The notes under the pieces were generated by a model. It was not told the origin of the DNA. It made no database searches and saw only the letters and a program-made list of their open reading frames with translations. From a virus (taxonomy: Duplodnaviria > Heunggongvirae > Uroviricota > Caudoviricetes), in IMG/VR virus record IMGVR_UViG_2657245660_000016, positions 1 to 8,587 of that record: DNA of 8,587 nucleotides; one strand, given 5' to 3'. Below, in pieces: positions 1 through 8,587 of this stretch. Position numbers and translations under genes: made by a program. Each line of letters starts with the position of its first letter. Position 1 is the first letter of the stretch.

Positions 1-342
1 ATGATGAAAAAAAGTATTCTGGCGTTTCTGTTACTCACCAGTTCTGCAGCGGCGCTGGCGGCACCGCAGGTGATTACCGTCAGTCGTTTTGAAGTGGGTA
101 AAGACAAATGGGCATTTAACCGCGAAGAGGTGATGCTGACTTGCCGACCGGGTAATGCTTTGTATGTTATTAATCCGAGTACCCTCGTGCAGTATCCTTT
201 AAACGATATCGCACAAAAGGAAGTTGCCAGTGGGAAGACTAAAGCCCAACCCATTTCGGTGATTCAGATTGATGATCCTAACAATCCCGGCGAAAAAATG
301 AGTCTGGCACCGTTTATAGAACGAGCTGAAAAACTCTGTTAA
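1..342 (+). CDS. yebY: Small periplasmic protein with N-terminal signal peptide, DUF2511/YebY-like (113 aa)
   Basis: Complete ORF from position 1 to TAA at 340-342. The N-terminus [23 protein letters not shown] is a typical Sec signal peptide with an AxA cleavage motif. The translation matches my recollection of E. coli YebY, which lies next to the sdsR/ryeA sRNA locus, and the sRNA-like sequence immediately downstream supports that context. Start could be either of the two leading ATGs. Confidence 0.75.
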
Positions 343-371
343 TTACCTAAAATAGCCTTTTGATTTCCAAT

Positions 372-413
372 AAAAAAACCGCCTCAGTTCTTTCACCAGA
401 ACGGGCGGTTTTT
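372..413. terminator. Bidirectional rho-independent terminator (A-run, GC stem ACCGCC/GGCGGT, T-run)
   Basis: A7 run at 372-378, stem 378-383 pairing with 404-409, inner stem GTTCT/AGAAC, T-run 409-413. It sits 30 nt after the yebY stop and can terminate transcripts from either strand (yebY on plus, an antisense sRNA on minus). Confidence 0.65.
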
Positions 414-500
414 AACATTTAAGCTGATGACCACCGCGCTTTTTATTGACCATTTTGCACGCAAACTGGAAAACCTGGCGTCGTCATCTATTCTTAAAGG

Positions 501-603
501 GCAAGGCAACTAAGCCTGCATTAATGCCAACTTTTAGCGCACGGCTCTCTCCCAAGAGCCATTTCCCTGGACCGAATACAGGAATCGTATTCGGTCTTTT
601 TTT
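501..603 (+). ncRNA. sdsR: SdsR (RyeB)-like sigma-S-dependent small RNA
   Basis: About 100-nt ORF-free segment starting GCAAGGCAACUAAGCCUGCAUUAAUGCC. It contains three hairpins, including GGCTCT/AGAGCC at 543-560, and ends in a perfect 10-bp stem (570-579 with 587-596, loop AGGAATC) followed by a T7 run at 597-603. A -10-like CTATTCT at 488-494 sits about 7 nt upstream of the predicted 5' end. Sequence and position next to yebY match my recollection of sdsR/ryeB; not verified by search. Confidence 0.55.
570..603 (+). terminator. Intrinsic terminator of the SdsR-like sRNA
   Basis: GACCGAATAC (570-579) pairs perfectly with GTATTCGGTC (587-596); 7-nt loop; followed by TTTTTTT (597-603). Confidence 0.7.
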
Positions 604-636
604 AATTGTATTTAAAATCAATTAGTTGCAAACGTC

Positions 637-656
637 TCCCCGAAATTCCCCGAAAT
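637..656. repeat. Tandem 10-bp direct repeat TCCCCGAAAT x2 (candidate integrase arm-type binding sites)
   Basis: Exact copies at 637-646 and 647-656, followed by the related ACTCGAATTT at 659-668. They lie about 80-100 bp from the int stop, the typical position of P' arm sites in lambda-family att regions. Confidence 0.4.
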
Positions 657-734
657 TTACTCGAATTTCTGTATTCCGGTCTTTTTTGGTTATATCACAA
701 CCAAAATACATTTAACAATCCATTTACGTAAAAA

Positions 735-1811
735 TCAGAGCAGTAAGTACGTTTTTTCTCTCTCATCAAGATACAGTTTTGTTGTCTTCTCCGATGTGTG
801 ACCAAGTAGGCGCTGGGCAAATTCTTCTCCACATGTTTCTTTGTACAATCGTCCAGCCAGACTTCTGATCTCGTGAAAAGTTGGTGGGTTTTCACTGAAC
901 TGAATACCTGTTAATTTTCTGGCTGCGACAAATTTTTTTGTCAGGCCATCCGGGTGAATGCTGCCGTCAGGGCTGTTTTTTCTAATCCCGGCACTGATTA
1001 GATAATCTCCCCGGCTTACCAGGCGGCACCGTTCAACTACTGTACCAAGCCGTAGGCCAGCGACAGGAAGGCTGAGTGACAAGGGGATAGCAATCATCAT
1101 TCCTGTCTTAATTTGCCTGATGTGGAGACGATCATCATAAATATCACTGAACCGCATATTCGTTATGTCTTCGCGACGTTGTCCTGTTACAAGGGCTAAA
1201 TCCATAGCTAATGGGAACCATGCCGGAAGTTGATCTGCTGCCTCCCTGATGCAGTTGTATGTCTTTAGTTTCAGTCGTTCTCTTGTAACTACTATTTTCG
1301 GTGCTCTTGTTGGTGTTACTGGATTTTGAGATATACGTCCTTCAACAATGGCCTCGCGGAACATATCAGATAACACAGAACGCATTGATCCTGCCATCGT
1401 GTTTTTCCCTCCTTCAATCCACAAATCAAGAAACTCGGCAATATGGCGAGTGGTTATTTCTGTCAGTAAAACACCTCCTAATTTTTCTTTTATTGTCTCC
1501 AGTTGATTTACCCGAATTTTATAAGTATTTCTGGACACTTTTCTCCTTATAAGAATCGTTTTGTAACGTTCAATCCAGTCTGCCATAGTAAATGAGTCGA
1601 ACCCTTTTAGTTTTTCAATTAAGGCAGCAGGAGAGTAGTTTTTGTATATATAATGATTTGCTTCAATTGCCTGCGCTACTGCATCTCTTCTTGAAATTTT
1701 ACCTAGTGTAAATTCTTCTTTCGTCAGAGGGTTGCGCCAGTAATATGCTTTGTCCCTCCTTCGATATGTTAAGTTTTTAGGCAAATTGGGATCGTATTTT
1801 TTCCGCTGCAT
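735..1811 (-). CDS. int: Lambda-family tyrosine integrase (358 aa)
   Basis: The translation aligns by eye with lambda Int at both ends. N-terminal arm-binding region: PNLPKNLTYRR...YYWRNPLTKEEFTLG against lambda PPNLYIRNNGYYCYRDPRTGKEFGLG. C-terminal catalytic region: HEIRSLAGRLY...LLGHTSEKTTKLYLDERE against lambda HELRSLSARLY...LLGH, including the tyrosine-containing tail. The 3' end faces the att region. Confidence 0.93.
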   Translation of the reverse strand: MQRKKYDPNLPKNLTYRRRDKAYYWRNPLTKEEFTLGKISRRDAVAQAIEANHYIYKNYSPAALIEKLKGFDSFTMADWIERYKTILIRRKVSRNTYKIRVNQLETIKEKLGGVLLTEITTRHIAEFLDLWIEGGKNTMAGSMRSVLSDMFREAIVEGRISQNPVTPTRAPKIVVTRERLKLKTYNCIREAADQLPAWFPLAMDLALVTGQRREDITNMRFSDIYDDRLHIRQIKTGMMIAIPLSLSLPVAGLRLGTVVERCRLVSRGDYLISAGIRKNSPDGSIHPDGLTKKFVAARKLTGIQFSENPPTFHEIRSLAGRLYKETCGEEFAQRLLGHTSEKTTKLYLDEREKTYLLL

Positions 1812-2058
1812 GTTTTAACTTCTCCAGTAACGGACTGTCTCTCCCTTGTCGCCCATTAGGCTGATGGTGTGTTATATCGGTATCAACCTTATTTGGGTTG
1901 ATATAGAAAGCTTCCGGAACCACCCTGTAACTCCTCCCGTGTAGTTCAGGTGCAGGATAAATGTTTCCATTCCTTGCCCATCGTCTCAGCGTTGATATTG
2001 ATGGTGGGTTATCCGGATATCTGAGTTTTCCCCACGTTTTGAGTGTCACAAGATTCAT
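1777..2058 (-). CDS. xis: Excisionase (lambda Xis-like, about 93 aa)
   Basis: MNLVTLKTWGKLRYPDNPPSISTLRRWARNGNIYPAPELHGRSY parallels lambda Xis MYLTLQEWNARQRRPRSLETVRRWVRECRIFPPPVKDGREY. I place the start at the third codon of the tracked ORF (ATG at 2058-2056) because the SD AGAGG is then 7 nt upstream; the tracked ATG at 2064 is too close to the SD. The 3' end overlaps int by 35 nt. Confidence 0.8.
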   Translation of the reverse strand: MNLVTLKTWGKLRYPDNPPSISTLRRWARNGNIYPAPELHGRSYRVVPEAFYINPNKVDTDITHHQPNGRQGRDSPLLEKLKHAAEKIRSQFA

Positions 2059-2168
2059 TGCCATACCTCTTACGATATGACCGCCAGCCAGTAAATATAC
2101 AGAATACTGGCGGGTGTGGTTGATTTTTAATAATCAGCTATGAAGTTCTAATTTGTATATAATGCAAC

Positions 2169-2357
2169 TCACGAGGACAGAAGTTTCTCGCAATTAAAAT
2201 TTATCAGCTTTACTTTCTGCTCTCTGGACACGCCTGCTTCTTTTTTCCCTGAGAGCATTTTTTCGCATTCTGATTTCGTTAATTTAGATTTTGAATATCT
2301 TGTCCAGTTAGTAGGAGTGCCACCTTCTTTTTCAATAGTGGCAGTTATTTTATACAT
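2169..2357 (-). CDS. ydaC: Small prophage protein, YdaC-like (DUF1187-type), 62 aa
   Basis: Start moved to the internal ATG at 2357-2355, which has a strong SD (GGAGGTG, 5-nt spacing). This start overlaps the ralR stop by 8 nt (ralR ...CAT GTA TAA; ydaC ATG TAT AAA), indicating translational coupling. The position between xis and ralR matches Rac gene order. Family assignment is from memory. Confidence 0.65.
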   Translation of the reverse strand: MYKITATIEKEGGTPTNWTRYSKSKLTKSECEKMLSGKKEAGVSREQKVKLINFNCEKLLSS

Positions 2358-2544
2358 GAACACCTCCATTATTATTTCCAGTGGTTCGTTTATTCCATCT
2401 TTCGAGTGCTTCTTTTTCACTTCCACCATAACCGGTTCGGGATTCGCATCCGTTACACTTCGCTCGGTAATATCCTGAAATGGCTTTCACCGTTACTGAT
2501 GGACAACCACAAAATGGACATGGTTTAACATTGTCATATCTCAT
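2350..2544 (-). CDS. ralR: RalR / Lar-family restriction-alleviation protein, DNase toxin of the RalR/RalA type I TA pair (64 aa)
   Basis: Translation from the internal ATG at 2544: MRYDNVKPCPFCGCPSVTVKAISGYYRAKCNGCESRTGYGGSEKEALERWNKRTTGNNNGGVHV. It is Cys-rich with CPFCGC and CNGC motifs and matches my recollection of Rac RalR. The 77-aa tracked ORF is an upstream in-frame extension. Confidence 0.8.
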   Translation of the reverse strand: MRYDNVKPCPFCGCPSVTVKAISGYYRAKCNGCESRTGYGGSEKEALERWNKRTTGNNNGGVHV

Positions 2545-2600
2545 AATTTTTCTCATAAAAAATATTTCAAGTTGGCGGTGCATTACACCGCCAGGCTGAA

Positions 2601-3410
2601 TTATTCCTCTGAATTATCGATTACACTGTATTCCCCGGTTAATACAGAGGAATCTGCAGGATCGATTGTCAGTGGTTCCTTTTCATCCATTGATACTGCA
2701 CGCTGGATCTCAATTGATACGGGCAGATATTTGAACAGGCGACGAATAGCCGTTTTCTTTGCCATTTCTTCCCAGTGAGTTACCCACGGCCCGTTATTAC
2801 CAGCTTTACTCAGGCTGCGCACCAGCTCAATCTGTTTGCGCGTCATAACTTCAAACTGAGTACCTCCGTCTTTCAGTCTTGCGACAGCATAGACGTGGGT
2901 AACCGGGGCATCTTCGTTTTCTCCCGGGCGGTGTATTAACTTTTCATCAAGGCCAAATTCGAAGCTAAACTCGTCACCTTCACGGACAACACGGGCTGAC
3001 AGGCTGGCGATTTGACCAGAACGGCGAGCCAGATCAATCATGCCGCGATAGCCAATGATTAGCTGAACGTTTTTTTTACCGCTCTTTTCGTTTTTATTAC
3101 CAAAAGGCAGTAAATATGCATGACCGAGAGCGCTACCGGGCTCAAGCCCGAGCTGTGAACACTGTACGATTGCACTGACAAAACTCATAGTGTCACAGTT
3201 TTCTAACGCCGGAACTTTACGGATTTCTGTGGTGGCGATACGGATCATACGTTCAGCCGTCATATGGCGTGGAAGAGCTGTTGCCAGTTGCTCTTTCATT
3301 GATGGCTGGTTAATAAAACTAATCACGTCGTTATTTTTAATTGCTGCTGGTGCACGGTTTCCCTGAGTTTTTTGCAGATCGGCTTTTGCGATTGGTGGTT
3401 GCTTAGTCAT
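2601..3410 (-). CDS. recT: RecT single-strand annealing recombinase (269 aa)
   Basis: Translation from the internal ATG at 3410 ([21 protein letters not shown]...) matches Rac RecT essentially end to end as I recall it. SD AGGAA lies upstream. The start overlaps the recE stop by 8 nt (AATGACTAA). The 19-aa N-terminal extension in the tracked ORF is rejected. Confidence 0.95.
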
Positions 3411-6072
3411 TTGCATATTCCTTAGCCCAGCGGGGCAGTGATAACGTCTTAATAGCTGGCCATTCATCGGTATTGAGGCAGTCAGCCAGGGTTCGCAGAT
3501 TGCGGTGATATTCCAGCTGACCTGCCAGTTTTGCTTCTTCGCCCATCATGAAAATTTCAACCGGATAACGTCCGCATTCAATAGTTGTGCTGGCAACCAG
3601 AAAAACGAAAGTTGGCTGCACTCCAAACTGTGCTTCATAACCGTCACTGTAGAATGCATCCTGAACGTGATAGCGGTAGTCGTAATAAGCGGTTTTGAAT
3701 CGTTGAATATCCGCCGTAGTTTTCACGTCCATGATCCAGTGAAATTCAGGGATAATTTTGTCCGGACGGCACCGACACAAAATTCCTGTTTCAGGATCTT
3801 CCCAGTAAATTGATGATTCAGCGTGTCCGGCGCTTTCAACAAGCCATTGCCCCAGCGGCAAAGCCATAACGCTTTGATACATGAGTTCAATTTTCCGGCC
3901 TTCTTCCGCAGTGATAACCGTTTTTCCTGTGCTTGCGCATTCCATCAGAAACGCTTTCTCTTCTTCTTTTCCGGCGTTTGTACGGCGATTAAATTCAGGT
4001 GCTATGATAAAGCGGTTACTGAATTCTTCCGGTTCAAGTACACGGCAGTGGAAAGCGGCTCCTAAATCGAGCGTTTTTGTCTTTGTGGTGTCCACTGGGG
4101 CATTTTTACGCCACAAATACAGAGCCGGAGTATCAGCAATGTCGTCGAGCTGAGACTTACTGACACCGGGACCAGCGTGGTAATTCTCATTCGAAATTCC
4201 GTAATAAATACCAGGCTCTATGTCTCCTGCGATTACGGGATCTGCGACTTCGCCAGTTTCGTCACTGCAATCGCGATGCGGATCGCTGCCAGCATTCTCA
4301 TTGTGCGGATGTTCAGGGCCTTCCATTTCCTCCGGATCTTTTTCCTGAGATTCATCCAGATTTTCTTCATTAAAGGTTTCCTGATACGTGGTGTCGCCCA
4401 TCACCGCGCCACAATCAGGGCAGTTGCCGCCACCGCTCTGACCGCAGGCGGCACAGACTTTTTCCGGTTCCTGTTGCGCTACTGGTTCAGATTGTTTCGT
4501 TTCTGGCTCGTTTTTCTGTGCATTTGGGCTGTTTTGTTCCGCTTTCTGGTTGTTTTGTTCCGATTCGGGCTGGTTCTGGTTCACAGAATCTCGGGTTTCA
4601 ATTCCCTTAACCCATTTCGGATCATTCGGGTCGCTAATCCCTTCAACAAATTCTCCGCGAGAGGCAGCCAGTAATTTATCTGCATCGACAGGATTTTGGG
4701 GCGGAATGTTTTTCCGGGCTTCATGGAGTTCTGCCCGCAGTTTCTGATATTTCGCATCAACAGAATTTACCTGTGACTGAGCATCCAGCGGCTGCGTGTC
4801 CTGATGATGTTCAGTTGCATCCGGTTCCACTGTTTCAGCCGTTGCCTGTTCATCTGCCATTGCGCAAGATGGTTGCAGTTTTTCTTCATCATCCTGTTTT
4901 CCTTCTTTTGTTACACGCTGCGGCATCGGGGCAGAGGAGCGACCACAGGCAATATCCACGATTTCCGGATCAGGGGTGGCATGATCGGTTTCAGTCAGCA
5001 CCTTATTCAGGTATTCGGTGACACGGTGGGGAGTAGCCTCTATACCAATTGGTGCTTCTTTCACGGACGCAACCACGATGGCGCGGGAGTAATCCTTGTG
5101 GCCCGGCATGGTGATGAATTTGCTGAAAAACACAGAAAATGGCGGTTTATTTTCAGCGATAATTTCCTCAATGCGTTTAGCGTGCGCGGGATGAAGGTTA
5201 TAAATATCCACGTCCATTGAACGGGCCAGTACGCCAGTGGCTACGTCACGCGCCACTGACGCATCATCGTGGACAAAACCTTCGCCGCGATCGGTAAGAA
5301 TGCCGCCGCCAGCGTTAGCGCCGGATGGCGTGCGGCTGATGCGTGAAACACGATTTCCTTTCATCCACTCTTTTGTAAGCAGACCGCGATCGGTGTAGTC
5401 AGCGCCCAGGTATGCTTCGATAAAAGAGGTCATCAGTCCCAGGTCCGAATTTACGGGGGCGGGGAAAACTTTGTCAGTGTCTCGCACCAGTTTGTACAAA
5501 TCCCGAATCTCCAGCGGTTCGAGTTGCACTGCTTTATTTGAGATGGCCAGCGCGGTAACGGCGGGAAGTTTTTCATCCTGTGCGTTATGTAATGCGCGCA
5601 GTTTGTCCAGTGAAACGTGCGTGAGCGGTTTTTCGCTGTTGTGTTGCGCCAGCCAGCGAACAGGCAGAATCTGACCTGAAACCGGAAGAAGCATATTCTC
5701 CTCAATCTTAGCCATGTCTTCGCCGTTGACGTTGGTATTGTCAGTACTGGCTGGTTTGTCCGGAACAGAGGGCGCGATAAGTATCATTGTGATACCATCT
5801 TCTCCGCCTTTTTCGTATCGGTTGCAGAATTCAGTATCAAACACACCTTCCGGTGGAAGGTCATTCACAACGGGTAAATGGACGCGGATGGGTTTTTTAA
5901 AATCCTCTTCGTCAAATCCGGCATCGTCCATTGCAGCAATGCAGCGTGAAACCGCAACAGAAAGTTTTTTTGCCTCTGTCCAGAAAAAGCCGCCTTTGAT
6001 GCCGAGGCGTTTTCTGGTTTTATCATTTTTCGCGTCGCAATACAGAGCGTAATTTTCTTTATCAGTACTCAT
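3403..6072 (-). CDS. recE: RecE exonuclease VIII (889 aa) with C-terminal PD-(D/E)XK nuclease domain
   Basis: The C-terminal roughly 280 aa (…[16 protein letters not shown]…[30 protein letters not shown]…[10 protein letters not shown]) matches the RecE nuclease domain as I recall it. The long N-terminal region resembles K-12 RecE but with a different extreme N-terminus. AGG SD lies 8 nt upstream of the ATG at 6072. Translationally coupled to recT. Confidence 0.92.
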
Positions 6073-6152
6073 TGATAAACCTCATAACTATTTTAAGGTT
6101 GAGCGACCACCTGCCATTGCTGGCATAAATTCAGTTTCGAATAGTCAGTTAG

Positions 6153-6323
6153 TTAAAGTTCGTGTGCCATCTGGTCTTTTTCGGCACAATTTTCACTACA
6201 ATATTTTTTCATTTCCGTCGTTGGGATAACTCCACGCATGAAATGAAGTGGTCTTTTAATACTTTTGCTTTCTTCAATTCCTTTATTGCAAAGGTGATAA
6301 GCACATTTTATTTTCTTAGTCAT
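6153..6323 (-). CDS. ydaE: YdaE-like small Cys-rich (probable zinc-binding) protein, 56 aa; absent from the ORF track
   Basis: Hand translation of the minus strand gives [56 protein letters not shown], ending TAA at 6155-6153. The ATG at 6323-6321 overlaps the kilR stop (TGATG). Four Cys are arranged CxxxxC...CxxxC. Position between recE and kilR matches Rac. Confidence 0.75.
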   Translation of the reverse strand: MTKKIKCAYHLCNKGIEESKSIKRPLHFMRGVIPTTEMKKYCSENCAEKDQMAHEL

Positions 6324-6544
6324 CACCATGACTCCGCCTTTACAGGTAAACCATCACGGCCGAGGAAGACTTTAATCATGCAGTCAGAAATGCATGTTTT
6401 TGTAGTCAGGCTACGAATATAAAGTTTTCGCTTTTTAATATTGTTTGCCGAGGCGATATATGTCCGACCTTCATGAAGAACATAATCGCCAGGAGTCACA
6501 CACTGACGTGGTATTTCATCAGTTCCGAAGTGATGAGCAATCAT
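6323..6544 (-). CDS. kilR: KilR, FtsZ-targeting cell-division inhibitor (73 aa)
   Basis: 73-aa ORF ([35 protein letters not shown]...) with a strong SD AAGGAG 6 nt upstream of the ATG. Sequence and position fit Rac KilR as I recall it. Confidence 0.8.
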
Positions 6545-6590
6545 AATTATCTCCTTAATAAATTTCTCGTATTAAGAAAATTCCAGAAAA

Positions 6591-7061
6591 CTATTTAATA
6601 CTCAGCAACTGCTCGACGGTCATATTTTTAATTGCGCTTCGGTTTACAAGAGTCCAGCCCTGTTTCTCCAGATAAAGGCGGAAAGTGTCCAGGGTACAGA
6701 CGAGAGCGCCATCAGGAACGGTTTCAGTGAATTCGACGTTGCCGAATTTGTCGAAGCGAACAACCAGAGTGCGCCCATCGCCCGGAATGATTTTGTTTGT
6801 GGGAGTGGTATTATTCTGGCGTAGCTCTGCTTCCATGCGGTCGAACTCAGCGATGTAGGCCTCTTTGAATGCAGCGGCTTTTTTGCCAGTGAAACCCATC
6901 ACCAGGAAAACGAAGCCGTTTTTGGTGATTTGGTACATTGGGAGTTTGCGCCCGGTTGAGTCGGTGTATTCACTTGGCTTAAAATTAAGCTCAGTGAATT
7001 CTGAGGAACATTCCAGAGCTTCAATTTTTTGAATGACGTTTTCAATAGCTACATCCAACAT
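6591..7061 (-). CDS. Rha-family phage regulatory protein-like (N-terminal Rha/pRha-type domain, uncharacterised C-terminal half), 156 aa
   Basis: Residues about 30-80 (SEYTDSTGRKLPMYQITKNGFVFLVMGFTGKKAAAFKEAYIAEFDRMEAEL) follow the conserved pattern of Rha-family regulators as I recall it (…Y.dsqGr..pmY.lt.dGF.lLvmgftG.kA..fK..yI..F..mE..L). SD AGGTGAG lies upstream of the ATG at 7061. It occupies the slot where K-12 Rac carries sieB. Confidence 0.65.
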   Translation of the reverse strand: MLDVAIENVIQKIEALECSSEFTELNFKPSEYTDSTGRKLPMYQITKNGFVFLVMGFTGKKAAAFKEAYIAEFDRMEAELRQNNTTPTNKIIPGDGRTLVVRFDKFGNVEFTETVPDGALVCTLDTFRLYLEKQGWTLVNRSAIKNMTVEQLLSIK

Positions 7062-7472
7062 TTTCTCTCACCTTTCATCACTGAAGTGAACTTTGTTGAT
7101 GCGGTGCCTGGTGCCTCCAGGTGACGTTAACCAGTTAACAATTAACGCCGGATAATCCACCCATAACACTGATGCTTTTAACTGTGCCGCGTGCGCTCAG
7201 CCGCATTCACCGCATCACAAAATTCACTTTAAAAAGGGGCGGCAGGGCAGCCACGGAGTAGAACTGATGCCGCCAAGACTACACACAGCAATGTCGTTAT
7301 TTACAACCGGAGGCGCACTCCCACCATTTAAATTTAACAGACAAGACCGACTCTTTATGGATATCGGAAATGCGCCTTCGTGTTGTGCCCGGTTTTATTT
7401 CACCACCTCCGGGCTTTGGTGGTTTCTGCTATACCCCTACAGCGAGAATATTGAATTAATCCAAATAATGGA

Positions 7473-7625
7473 TTAGCAAGTATTTCTGGCAAGCCAGCGA
7501 CGTGCGCCAGCTTCGGTTTTAAACGATTTGCTTTTGGTATACGTCATTGCGGTGAACGCGCCGTCCTGGTTTGGAAACACGCCACATACCAGAGATTCGT
7601 TGTTGCCAAGATCGATAGTATCCAT
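7473..7625 (-). CDS. Small prophage protein, YdaF/YdfA-like (DUF1391-type), 50 aa; absent from the ORF track
   Basis: Hand translation: MDTIDLGNNESLVCGVFPNQDGAFTAMTYTKSKSFKTEAGARRWLARNTC, stop TAA at 7475-7473. A G-rich SD (GGGGAAATGAGG) lies upstream. It is the first gene downstream of the PL-like promoter, as ydaF is in Rac. Family assignment is from memory. Confidence 0.6.
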   Translation of the reverse strand: MDTIDLGNNESLVCGVFPNQDGAFTAMTYTKSKSFKTEAGARRWLARNTC

Positions 7626-7695
7626 GTTGACCTCATTTCCCCTTAACGCCGGGTGGCGGAACTAAAACCTACAGCGCCGTGCTGTTCTTGATGTG

Positions 7696-7796
7696 AATAT
7701 TAGTAACACGGATATTTTAAGTCAACAGTATGGCGTATGATATTTTTGATTTAGTAACTATGTAAATGTTTTTCAAGGGAAAAATATTAGTTACAC
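7696..7796. promoter_or_regulatory. Candidate OL-type operator set: 14-bp direct repeats AATATTAGTAACAC (7696-7709) and AATATTAGTTACAC (7783-7796), plus related TTAGTAACTA (7751-7760)
   Basis: Two copies identical at 13 of 14 positions lie 87 bp apart, with a third partial copy between them. The AATATT/TTAGT motif also recurs in the divergent promoter region at 8363-8368, 8401-8405 and 8412-8417. Confidence 0.4.
7697..7725 (-). promoter_or_regulatory. PL-like early-left promoter (sigma-70 -35 TTGACT, 17-bp spacer, -10 TAATAT, read on the minus strand)
   Basis: The plus-strand agtcaa at 7720-7725 is the -35 and atatta at 7697-7702 is the -10, with an exact 17-bp spacer. The predicted start near 7690 gives a roughly 65-nt leader to the ydaF-like ATG. 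The -10 overlaps a repeated 14-mer. Confidence 0.45.
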
Positions 7797-7821
7797 AGCT
7801 GATTTGCAGAAGTTATGGCAC

Positions 7822-7851
7822 AAAAAAACCGACTAAGACGTCGGTTTTTTT
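7822..7851. terminator. Bidirectional rho-independent terminator downstream of the repressor gene
   Basis: A7 run at 7822-7828, stem ACCGAC (7828-7833) pairing with GTCGGT (7840-7845), loop TAAGAC, T7 run at 7845-7851. It sits 27 nt past the repressor stop. Confidence 0.65.
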
Positions 7852-7877
7852 GTTGTGGATAGGGTAGTGAGTGGTGG

Positions 7878-8339
7878 CTACTGGTTACGTTTCTTTAGTG
7901 CCAGCATGTTCTCGAAGGCTTCCTCATAGAGCTTGTTTAGTCCACGTAGCTGGTTAAGGAGTTTGGCTTTTTCTGACGCAGGTAGAATCTCGAAGAGGTT
8001 AAGTAACTCTGCCTGTTCTTCATTGACCAGCCTCCATCCTTTGCCTGAAAAGCTATCATCATAAGTATCTGATGATCTTACATAATTCATTAAGTCTTTA
8101 AGGTCTTCTCGAATGTCCTCTGGTTTTACCTTTAACAGAGCCGCAAATTTTAGCGCAGCGTCGGTATTTACCGGTATCTTGCCGTTCAGATACTGGCTAA
8201 CGGTGCCTTGAGATTCGAATCCCAACAACTCAGCCGCCAGCTCTTGAGTCAGCTTCAGCTCTTTTTTTCTTGCATTCCATGCGGCTTTTAAATTCTTGCT
8301 CGCTTCTGGAGTTGCAATCACTTCGCGTGTTTTTTTCAT
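7878..8339 (-). CDS. Prophage immunity repressor, CI/RacR-like, HTH-XRE N-terminal domain without LexA-type peptidase domain (153 aa)
   Basis: The N-terminal region LTQELAAELLGFESQGTVSQYLNGKIPVNTDAALKFAALLKVKPEDI is a classic XRE/Cro-CI helix-turn-helix. The C-terminal 60 aa are helical and charged with no Ser/Lys autopeptidase motifs. The gene is divergent from a cro-like gene. There is no SD before the ATG, which suggests a leaderless mRNA as for lambda cI. Confidence 0.85.
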   Translation of the reverse strand: MKKTREVIATPEASKNLKAAWNARKKELKLTQELAAELLGFESQGTVSQYLNGKIPVNTDAALKFAALLKVKPEDIREDLKDLMNYVRSSDTYDDSFSGKGWRLVNEEQAELLNLFEILPASEKAKLLNQLRGLNKLYEEAFENMLALKKRNQ

Positions 8340-8345
8340 ACATAG

Positions 8346-8373
8346 AGTTTATTTGTTTTACCAATATTATCAA
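8346..8373 (-). promoter_or_regulatory. Candidate PRM-like promoter for the repressor (minus strand -35 TTGATA, 16-bp spacer, -10 TAAACT), probably giving a leaderless transcript
   Basis: The -10 ends about 6 nt before the repressor ATG at 8339 and there is no SD, an arrangement like lambda PRM/cI. Motif match is moderate. Confidence 0.3.
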
Positions 8374-8387
8374 AGATAGTCTGACTG

Positions 8388-8416
8388 TTGATCTTTAAAA
8401 TTAGTGGAGCTAATAT
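8388..8416 (+). promoter_or_regulatory. PR-like promoter for the cro-like gene (-35 TTGATC, 17-bp spacer, -10 TAATAT)
   Basis: TTGATC at 8388-8393 and TAATAT at 8411-8416. The SD GAAGG at 8436-8440 sits 6 nt before the ATG at 8447. The -10 uses the same hexamer as the PL-like promoter and lies within an AATATT-containing repeat. Confidence 0.45.
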
Positions 8417-8446
8417 TTGTTCGAGGCATAACGTAGAAGGTTGGCT

Positions 8447-8587
8447 ATGAACTTAAGAGACTATTTAAAAGAGAAACATATCACCCAGTTACAGTTTGGG
8501 AAGCTAACGGGTTTATCTCAGGTGCATGTAAGTCGAGTGCTGGGGGGCTATGAAAGATTCAGCCCTGAAAAAGCATTACGTGTTGCT
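8447..8587 (+). CDS. Cro/YdaS-like HTH DNA-binding protein (5' part only; runs off the window)
   Basis: ATG with good SD. The translation MNLRDYLKEKHITQLQFGKLTGLSQVHVSRVLGGYERFSPEKALRVA has a helix-turn-helix signature (…GLSQVHVSRV…). It is divergent from the repressor, as cro or ydaS is. Confidence 0.75.
   Translation, partial: MNLRDYLKEKHITQLQFGKLTGLSQVHVSRVLGGYERFSPEKALRVA

Follow-up and report, generated by a model that had tools for sequence, protein, structure and literature searches.

A Probable Non-Coding RNA Locus with a KilS/DicF-Type Small RNA and an STnc100-Like Leader in the Early-Left Operon of a Rac-Like Prophage

Introduction

Two small RNAs (sRNAs) of Escherichia coli K-12 prophages are the described counterparts of the locus studied here. 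KilS (b4833) is encoded upstream of kilR in the Rac-type early-left operon. It was predicted from RIL-seq (ligation and sequencing of interacting RNAs), verified by northern blotting, and reported to associate with Hfq and to have a promoter of its own from which it can be transcribed, with yncL as partner (PMC8175672; Bar et al. 2021). DicF is encoded by the Qin prophage in the order ydfA (a DUF1391 gene), dicF, about 175 nt and dicB. Its 5′ end is produced by RNase E and its 3′ end by termination or by RNase III, whose action on read-through dicBF transcripts yields a 72-nt DicF that exceeds the terminated form by 19 nt (PMC5069750, PMC9438474). The DicF 3′ region pairs with the ribosome-binding site (RBS) of ftsZ, as validated by compensatory mutations (PMC5069750). 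We analysed the 411 bp found between the Rha-family and DUF1391 genes (positions 7062–7472, named here the gap) of an 8587-nt stretch of DNA from a Rac-like prophage (IMG/VR record IMGVR_UViG_2657245660_000016, positions 1 to 8587, named here the window). This gap had been singled out in an original prediction, made from the sequence of the window, as an ORF-free region rich in repeats and hairpins within an otherwise tightly packed leftward operon (ORF, open reading frame).

Enterohaemorrhagic E. coli (EHEC) reportedly has four dicF copies, a count said to have been given by Melson and Kendall in 2019, and the “four dicF copies” of EHEC are treated as one regulator. An Rfam-based table of EDL933 lists DicF_1-4 and STnc100_1-11. 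STnc100 and the related PasD sRNAs are found in prophages of EHEC and of enteropathogenic E. coli (EPEC) and in temperate enterobacterial phages. Canonical STnc100 members have been described as sRNAs that are abundant, associate with Hfq and have targets in trans; they carry their own terminator and occur as stand-alone sRNAs, in arrays in the neighbourhood of tRNA, Q and lysis genes. A further element of phage early operons, the put RNA of HK022, has about 70 nt and two stem-loops with a triplex, lies just downstream of PL/PR and acts on the zinc-binding domain of the RNA polymerase beta′ subunit (PMC9378689).

Two RNA Modules in the Gap

The gap is very probably a minus-strand non-coding RNA locus composed of two modules, an sRNA gene (7324 to 7231) followed by a structured read-through leader (7229 to 7084). 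Both modules, which together explain the gap, are of known kinds: an sRNA of the KilS/DicF family with its terminator, and the conserved leader found after dicF and kilS in K-12. A processed leader or sRNA was among the roles first proposed for the gap and this proposal was essentially right, as supported by a DicF match above the gathering score, orthology with kilS and a covarying leader structure. The alignment with K-12 Rac that had been suggested places the gap as orthologous to the kilS region; no remnant of sieB or ydaG was found by tblastn. The K-12 Rac annotation shows kilS, an sRNA gene, and a plus-strand sieB at the equivalent position. How the locus is transcribed and processed, which targets it has and what regulation results are inferred from homology and structure.

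The sRNA gene (about 94 nt; 7231–7324, minus strand) was mapped from K-12 kilS by a three-way alignment. Its 5′ 50 nt are identical to K-12 KilS at 49 positions, and K-12 strains match sRNA positions 1–63 at 98.4%. Its terminator hairpin is identical to the one of Qin DicF at 32 of 37 positions versus 22 of 41 for K-12 KilS. Since the head is that of KilS and the hairpin that of DicF, the sRNA is, by its sequence, a mosaic in which a KilS-type head is fused to a DicF-type hairpin and U tract. The Rfam DicF model (RF00039) matches positions 7287–7237 of the minus strand with 54.7 bits (gathering score 48; E = 4.4e-10); the corresponding scores are 76.7 bits for K-12 DicF and 39.1 bits for K-12 KilS. 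The terminator hairpin (7274–7238) is formed by the arms GGCGGCA/UGCCGCC, which are the inverted repeat GGCGGCA/TGCCGCC (7238–7244 and 7268–7274) noted earlier, and is followed by CC-UUUUU. The terminator scan called a terminator-like site at 7254–7239, followed by CCCTTTTTAA. Hairpin stems change compensatorily between head/hairpin variants. The fold of the sRNA alone is unexceptional relative to shuffles (z = −1.0). By analogy with its relatives, the gap sRNA is predicted to be of the Hfq-type base-pairing kind.

An extended −10 element, TG-n-TAAATT (7331–7339, minus strand; hexamer 7336–7331, TG 7339–7338), is read from the sequence and ends 7 nt upstream of the putative sRNA start at 7324. 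It probably belongs to the sRNA’s own promoter. The upstream part of the gap (7325–7472) is homologous, from 7325 to about 7445, to the sieB–kilS intergenic region of K-12 Rac; sieB is absent from the window. Identity with K-12 reaches 99.3% over 7325–7400, and 7325–7440 is almost identical to the sequence upstream of K-12 kilS. The upstream part is kept in 1771 E. coli genomes. No significant fold was found for these 148 nt (z = −0.65 on the minus and +0.24 on the plus strand). They include the interleaved inverted repeats GCCCGG/CCGGGC (7387–7392 and 7409–7414) and ACCACC/GGTGGT (7402–7407 and 7418–7423), which span 7387–7423 in the homologue of the sieB–kilS intergenic region, again with no significant fold on either strand. 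Another inverted repeat (7308–7322/7366–7380; 15 nt, 80% complementary) relates the sRNA 5′ hairpin to the sequence upstream of its start. It could be relevant only in read-through transcripts from the operon promoter, e.g., for processing.

The window sRNA thus has the same place as KilS in a Rac-type early-left operon upstream of kilR, and the two loci are 98–99% identical over the first ~63 nt of the sRNA and about 120 nt upstream; the seed motif (see below) and a homologous leader are common to both. They differ by the terminator hairpin (KilS has its own whereas the window has that of DicF), by the presence of rha between leader and kilR in the window, and by the absence of sieB upstream. 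Only the hairpin and the 175 nt downstream of it align with Qin. The order DUF1391 gene, sRNA, ~175 nt, rha of the window parallels the one of Qin, with rha in place of dicB and without ydfB and ydfC. The likeness of the hairpin to DicF extends to the 3′ half, the part pairing with the ftsZ RBS, while KilS/RprA-like sequence takes the place of the 5′ single-stranded region of DicF. The 5′ end of the window sRNA would also arise differently, from a probable promoter of its own rather than from the RNase E processing reported for DicF.

An identical sRNA sequence is found in O157:H7 and in a cattle isolate. Among 5426 complete genomes, 173 cover at least 80% of the sRNA, and about 1700–1800 complete E. 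coli genomes carry the KilS head. In the O157:H7 Rac-like prophage copy (L005) the 5′ region differs from DicF, so its targets may differ too. Head, hairpin and downstream gene are combined in further ways at other loci where, e.g., kilR goes with a DicF head or rha with a KilS head. E. coli JNEC-KY178 (L006, 1353–1765) has the K-12-type KilS hairpin and a leader near-identical to that of the window, followed by a dicB pseudogene and not by rha, a locus that illustrates recombination within the hairpin and leader module. The locus shows that heads and terminator hairpins of the sRNA, the leader and the downstream genes are shuffled as modules between prophages.

The Structured Leader

The minus strand of 7236–7062 (175 nt) folds with −63 kcal/mol compared to −45.6 ± 3.6 kcal/mol for shuffled sequences (z = −4.8; 0 of 200 shuffles). 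The STnc100 model (RF02076) matches 7247–7078 with 41.8 bits (E = 1.3e-7). Our modelling indicates that the leader is a pseudoknotted four-hairpin domain of the STnc100 fold enclosed by a 22-bp helix. In the minimum free energy (MFE) fold, the 5′ strand of this closing helix P0, AAAGUGAAUUUUGUGAUGCGGUG (7208–7229, minus strand as for all leader elements), and its 3′ strand, CACCGCAUCAACAAAGUUCACUU (7084–7106), form 22 pairs of which six have compensatory changes; P0 also covaries across the wider family. The sequence GGUGAAU (7211–7205), located 5′ of hairpin P1, is invariant in 91 family members. P1 (GCGGC-UGAGC-GC(A)CGC; 7189–7204) has 100% of cells paired. The linker carries the sequence CAGUUAA (7178–7184) that pairs, as the 5′ arm of the pseudoknot, with positions 7138–7132 in the loop of hairpin P3 (a perfect 7-nt inverted repeat). 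P3 (GGCGUUAA-UUGUUAACUGG-UUAACGUC; 7123–7149) has eight pairs, four of them compensatory, and 98.5% of cells paired. Hairpin P4 (CCUGG-AGGCA-CCAGG; 7107–7121) lies within the signature UCACCnGGAGGCACCnGGCACC and again has 100% of cells paired.

Comparative data argue for this structure. In 91 sequences the third pair of P4 is GC in 73 cases and UA in 18 cases, with no mismatch. When linker and P3 loop are compared in 13 sequence classes, their complementarity averages 7.2 nt for matched and 4.5 nt for mismatched partners, which indicates that the pairing between them is a pseudoknot. For the 17 window-type relatives, 93.2% of cells are paired versus 33–41% when the partners are slid; 11 pairs have double (compensatory) changes, and the covariation score was reached by none of 500 shuffles. 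Pairs of the wider family were counted by anchor-based parsing and those of the subfamily on its own alignment, a whole-family MAFFT alignment being badly registered in P3. The topology of the STnc100 fold is tRNA-like, with a closing helix abutting a 5-bp hairpin plus the pseudoknot. ARAGORN identified no tRNA or tmRNA in the window and the tRNA-like idea concerns topology only.

The leader is followed by the Shine-Dalgarno (SD) region AAGGUGAG and ATG of the Rha-family gene (7059–7076, minus strand; SD 7074–7067, ATG 7061–7059). In the MFE fold the sequence GAAAGG of this region pairs with the sRNA U tract, a model that suggests sequestration of the SD of the Rha-family gene.

The Leader Family and Its Two Contexts

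Copies of the leader core (7214–7100) are found in Rac-SA53, Shiga toxin (Stx) phages and a Klebsiella phage, as well as upstream of tciA/terB in P7 and D6, two P1-like phages. When IMG/VR was scanned for the pattern UCACCnGGAGGCACnnGGCRCC, more than 120 stretches were retrieved, from which 91 unique domains were parsed. Their common fold has a closing helix that starts from GGUGAAU, followed by P1, the linker, P3, P4 (CCnGG-AGGCA-CCnGG) and CACC. The closing helix, P1, pseudoknot, P3 and UCACCnGGAGGCACCnGGCACC are those of the STnc100 and PasD sRNAs. The family is found in two contexts. Canonical STnc100 copies score 53–147 bits and 59 out of 81 have an intrinsic terminator 10–65 nt downstream. 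In window-type copies an ORF starts 32–45 nt downstream (30 of 35 cases, window included), which is dicB, kilR, rha or tciA/terB. The window-type subfamily is distinguished from the canonical one by its 22-bp closing helix, the loop UUGUUAACUGG, the lack of a terminator and its position as 5′ leader of these genes.

Canonical copies form tandem arrays of 3–6 units and are found beside phage tRNA clusters (L019, 2265–3380; L077, 4349–5513 and 8357–8555; L027, 342–1038; L011, 8044–8560; L020, 1142–1942). A window-type leader 84% identical to that of the window is present in P7 (L007, 1501–1616) and D6 (L008, 1501–1621). It lies within the tRNA cluster of the ban operon, with terB/tciA (“tellurite/colicin resistance, inhibition of cell division”) 40 nt downstream. 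The leader is therefore a cassette common to lambdoid and P1-like phages.

It is conceivable, although we consider it rather unlikely, that the leader is itself a cis-acting regulatory device (a tRNA-like or riboswitch-like element recognized by a protein, a ligand or RNase P, or an antiterminator RNA of the put kind) for which RNase III processing is secondary, and that would gate the downstream toxic division-inhibitor genes. Covariation of the stems together with invariance of the unpaired GGUGAAU, of the AGGCA loop and of UCACC...CACC, the pseudoknot, and the fixed distance of 32–45 nt to the next start codon would all fit such a device. The terminators found downstream of the 59 canonical copies would be positioned like a riboswitch expression platform. 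The tRNA-like topology and the location of elements beside phage tRNA clusters are also in its favor, and the literature, which has hypotheses only, establishes no function for STnc100. However, no Rfam riboswitch, ribozyme or tRNA model matches, the canonical members are the abundant Hfq-associated and trans-acting sRNAs mentioned above, and the window element is found after a terminator, not before it. The architecture of HK022 put (~70 nt, two stem-loops, immediately after its promoter) is also different from that of the window leader (~145 nt, four hairpins, a pseudoknot and a long helix), the two being set apart by description only.

Proposed Expression and Processing of the Locus

Under the two-module reading, the extended −10 promoter would allow independent synthesis of the sRNA (7324 to 7231), as described for KilS, and the sRNA may also be cut from read-through transcripts of the early-left promoter, the route described for DicF. 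It would end at the Rho-independent terminator, which may also limit transcription into rha-kilR-recET. The leader (7229 to 7084) would be present only in transcripts reading through this terminator. Because a position 19 nt past the terminator, the length by which processed DicF exceeds the terminated form, falls in the 5′ strand of P0, we infer an RNase III site in P0, at about 7217/7216. In Qin, the helix corresponding to P0 is the one with the RNase III site that yields the 72-nt DicF. A cut in the P0 of the window would detach the sRNA from the mRNA and leave the downstream gene with a short 5′ end near its SD. The released sRNA would act in trans on KilS-type targets through UGCUGUGUGUAGU, and possibly on ftsZ through the DicF hairpin.

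Seed, Targets and Resemblance to RprA

The candidate seed UGCUGUGUGUAGU (7278–7290, minus strand) is the invariant core of KilS-type heads and is the same in seven KilS-head variants with differing hairpins. It is single-stranded and complementary to the yncL 5′ untranslated region, with an energy of −18.7 kcal/mol compared to −10.2 ± 2.2 kcal/mol for shuffles (reached by 1 of 1000). This invariance and complementarity make UGCUGUGUGUAGU (7290–7278) the probable seed of the sRNA. Co-folding predicts the DicF pattern of pairing with the ftsZ RBS for the window RNA, whose hairpin is opened in this pairing, and not for K-12 KilS. The window sRNA may plausibly target ftsZ. Whole-length duplexes calculated with RNAduplex were discarded as the pairings were unrealistically long.

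A 31-column block of the head (7302–7272, minus strand; AAAYAACGA-AUUGCUGUGUGUAGUCUU-GC) is identical at 28 positions to nucleotides 50–80 of RprA, and in both the KilS-type head and RprA it is found directly 5′ of the terminator stem. The block includes the 13-nt motif UGCUGUGUGUAGU, which RprA has in identical form. Local alignment of the KilS head with rprA scores 45, whereas the best of 2000 dinucleotide shuffles reached 32 (Gumbel p ~2e-7). The likeness is reported here, on the basis of this alignment, as homology of the block and not as shared function. The sRNA does not qualify as a member of the RprA family (RF00034), scoring 28 bits (E = 0.5) versus a gathering score of 70, and has only the 31-column block in common with it. 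RprA, a core-genome and Rcs-dependent sRNA, has 5′ stem-loops different from those of the window sRNA, which lacks its three-stem-loop architecture, and the RprA seed hairpin (around nt 31–50; PMC5861431) is not conserved in the KilS head. Activation of rpoS in the RprA manner is not claimed, the predicted pairing with the rpoS leader being at chance level. No paper linking RprA with KilS was found in the searchable literature. As far as this literature shows, the mosaic sRNA, its RprA-like block and the leader as a pseudoknotted cis-leader subfamily of STnc100 appear to be new.

Taken jointly, these features could mean that KilS-type sRNAs are phage-borne partial copies of RprA and that the leader is a previously unrecognized cis-acting subfamily of STnc100, a tentative reading to which we give limited credence. 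It implies that the 13–31-nt single-stranded block beside the terminator, common with RprA, would serve as the KilS-type seed. If true, the version found in the window and in O157:H7 would be a natural two-seed chimera that gained the ftsZ-binding hairpin of DicF by recombination and would link the inhibition of cell division to a set of RprA-like targets. The leader may then be a portable processing/control cassette placed before dicB, kilR, tciA/terB and rha in lambdoid and P1-like phages. The RprA block and the pseudoknotted STnc100-type fold provide concrete testable hypotheses.

Several observations weigh against the reading of the gap as sRNA gene and leader, or against parts of it. The window locus and the identical O157:H7 locus are known here from sequence alone. 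The DicF score comes almost wholly from the terminator hairpin, DicF model positions 1–14 not being conserved in the cmscan alignment; the region found at these positions is KilS/RprA-like instead. The STnc100 score of the leader is below the gathering score of 47, as are those of the leaders of Qin (34.4 bits) and Rac (28 bits) and of the window-type copies in P7, D6, Kp4865-4, phiSTEC1589 and L062. The pseudoknot is invariant in the window-type subfamily and its support comes from the wider family only. The putative promoter lacks a −35 element; the consensus scan, for which one is required, did not report it. The RNase III cut in P0 is placed by homology with Qin and by calculation from published RNA lengths. 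Concerning targets, the full-length KilS–yncL energy is unremarkable and the isolated seed alone stands out. The co-folds with ftsZ give free energy differences (ddG) of −9.0 to −10.4, compared to −11.3 for DicF, and none beats shuffled controls. The rpoS interaction energy is no better than that of mononucleotide shuffles, while the positive control RprA–rpoS stands out.

Repeats and Reading Frames of the Gap

All repeats listed in the original prediction are present, their coordinates being correct within one or two bases. An array of binding sites for a regulator was one of the roles it proposed. The tandem GGTGCCT GGTGCCT (7103–7116) and the two GTTAAC sites (7126–7131 and 7134–7139), next to a further TTAAC (7142–7146), do resemble protein-binding arrays and might be operators for a repressor or regulator, such as Rha or a RacR-like repressor. 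We regard this as very unlikely. The TTAAC/HpaI-like cluster corresponds to P3 and the pseudoknot arm, and the GGTGCCT tandem to P4 and the closing helix; the repeats are the arms and loops of RNA helices for which covariation is seen in relatives. Their partners change compensatorily (TTAAC becomes TGCAG or CTGCC, and T-A becomes G-C within the hairpin of GGTGCCT), which argues for selection on RNA pairing and not on DNA sites. Better operator candidates are found outside the gap: the TTAGTAAC repeats overlapping promoter-like sites at 7697–7794.

A nut-like or antitermination site, of the lambda type or another one used by an N-like protein, had also been suggested. The hairpins and the early-left operon position of the gap, as well as the presence of N upstream in some phages that have the same leader (L010), are compatible with it. 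However, the minus (operon) strand of the gap carries no boxA-like sequence, boxA matches in the complete window (8) are close to the expected number (6.9; boxB was not modelled separately), no N-like ORF is found between the promoter region and the gap, and the sRNA terminator together with the STnc100-type fold explains every hairpin. The probability left to a nut site is accordingly minimal.

The claim that the gap has no credible ORF was borne out. That no minus-strand ORF exceeds 23 codons holds for ATG starts (23 aa, 7135–7206) and fails when GTG and TTG starts are allowed (33 aa, 7068–7169; 30 aa, 7400–7492). The 69-aa plus-strand ORF (7267–7476) exists and is antisense to the sRNA. Neither it nor the 33-aa ORF has a Pfam match. 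The expectation that ydaG would be found in the gap was mistaken as K-12 Rac has ydaG between racR and ydaF, on the other side of the DUF1391 gene. A decayed coding gene (a sieB or ydaG remnant) or a functional 69-aa ORF, for which the loss of the sieB found between ydaF and kilS in K-12 Rac could be invoked, is hardly credible: tblastn with K-12 SieB and YdaG found nothing in the gap (E of at least 2.2), and the 69-aa and 33-aa ORFs overlap elements that are conserved and covary as RNA, in a gap that is 97% conserved and unannotated.

Conservation and Prophage Context

The gap with its flanks (6900–7700) has matches in 4647 of the 5426 complete E. coli genomes, at up to 12 places per genome. 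It is conserved as a unit (97%) in genomes that likewise have no annotation there; RefSeq shows no annotated feature at the gap in the genomes inspected. RNA genes, for which genome pipelines give no annotation, would account in full for an “empty” 410 bp of a very common prophage operon.

The minus-strand ORFs of the window include integrase, ralR, recT, recE, ydaE, kilR (6323–6544), the Rha-family gene, the DUF1391 gene and a helix-turn-helix repressor (7878–8339). The gene flanking the gap on its 5′ side (7473–7625, minus strand) encodes a DUF1391 protein homologous to YdfA/YdaF (Pfam PF07151, E = 3e-28; 82–86% identity to YdaF/YdfA). The 3′ flank is the Rha-family regulator gene (6591–7061, minus strand; Pfam PF09669), which has an in-frame internal deletion: residues ~9–132 of the 282-aa protein of close relatives are missing and the remainder is 99% identical.

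The scan of the window with all Rfam families also identified RyeA/SdsR (463–607) and the RalA antitoxin RNA (2173–2351). The RyeA/SdsR genes adjoin the prophage integrase (735–1811) and the Rac-like prophage of the window appears to be located beside ryeA/sdsR; K-12 Rac is annotated at about 1.41 Mb. The region 7626–7877 is likely the immunity and early-left control region. It carries a bidirectional terminator-like hairpin with flanking A/T runs (about 7826–7850), the operator-like repeats TTAGTAAC (7700–7707 and 7751–7758) and TTAGTTAC (7787–7794), and two minus-strand promoter-like sites (7766–7737 and 7725–7697). A weak RNAI match in this region (7746–7853; 23.5 bits, E = 0.6) is probably due to chance.

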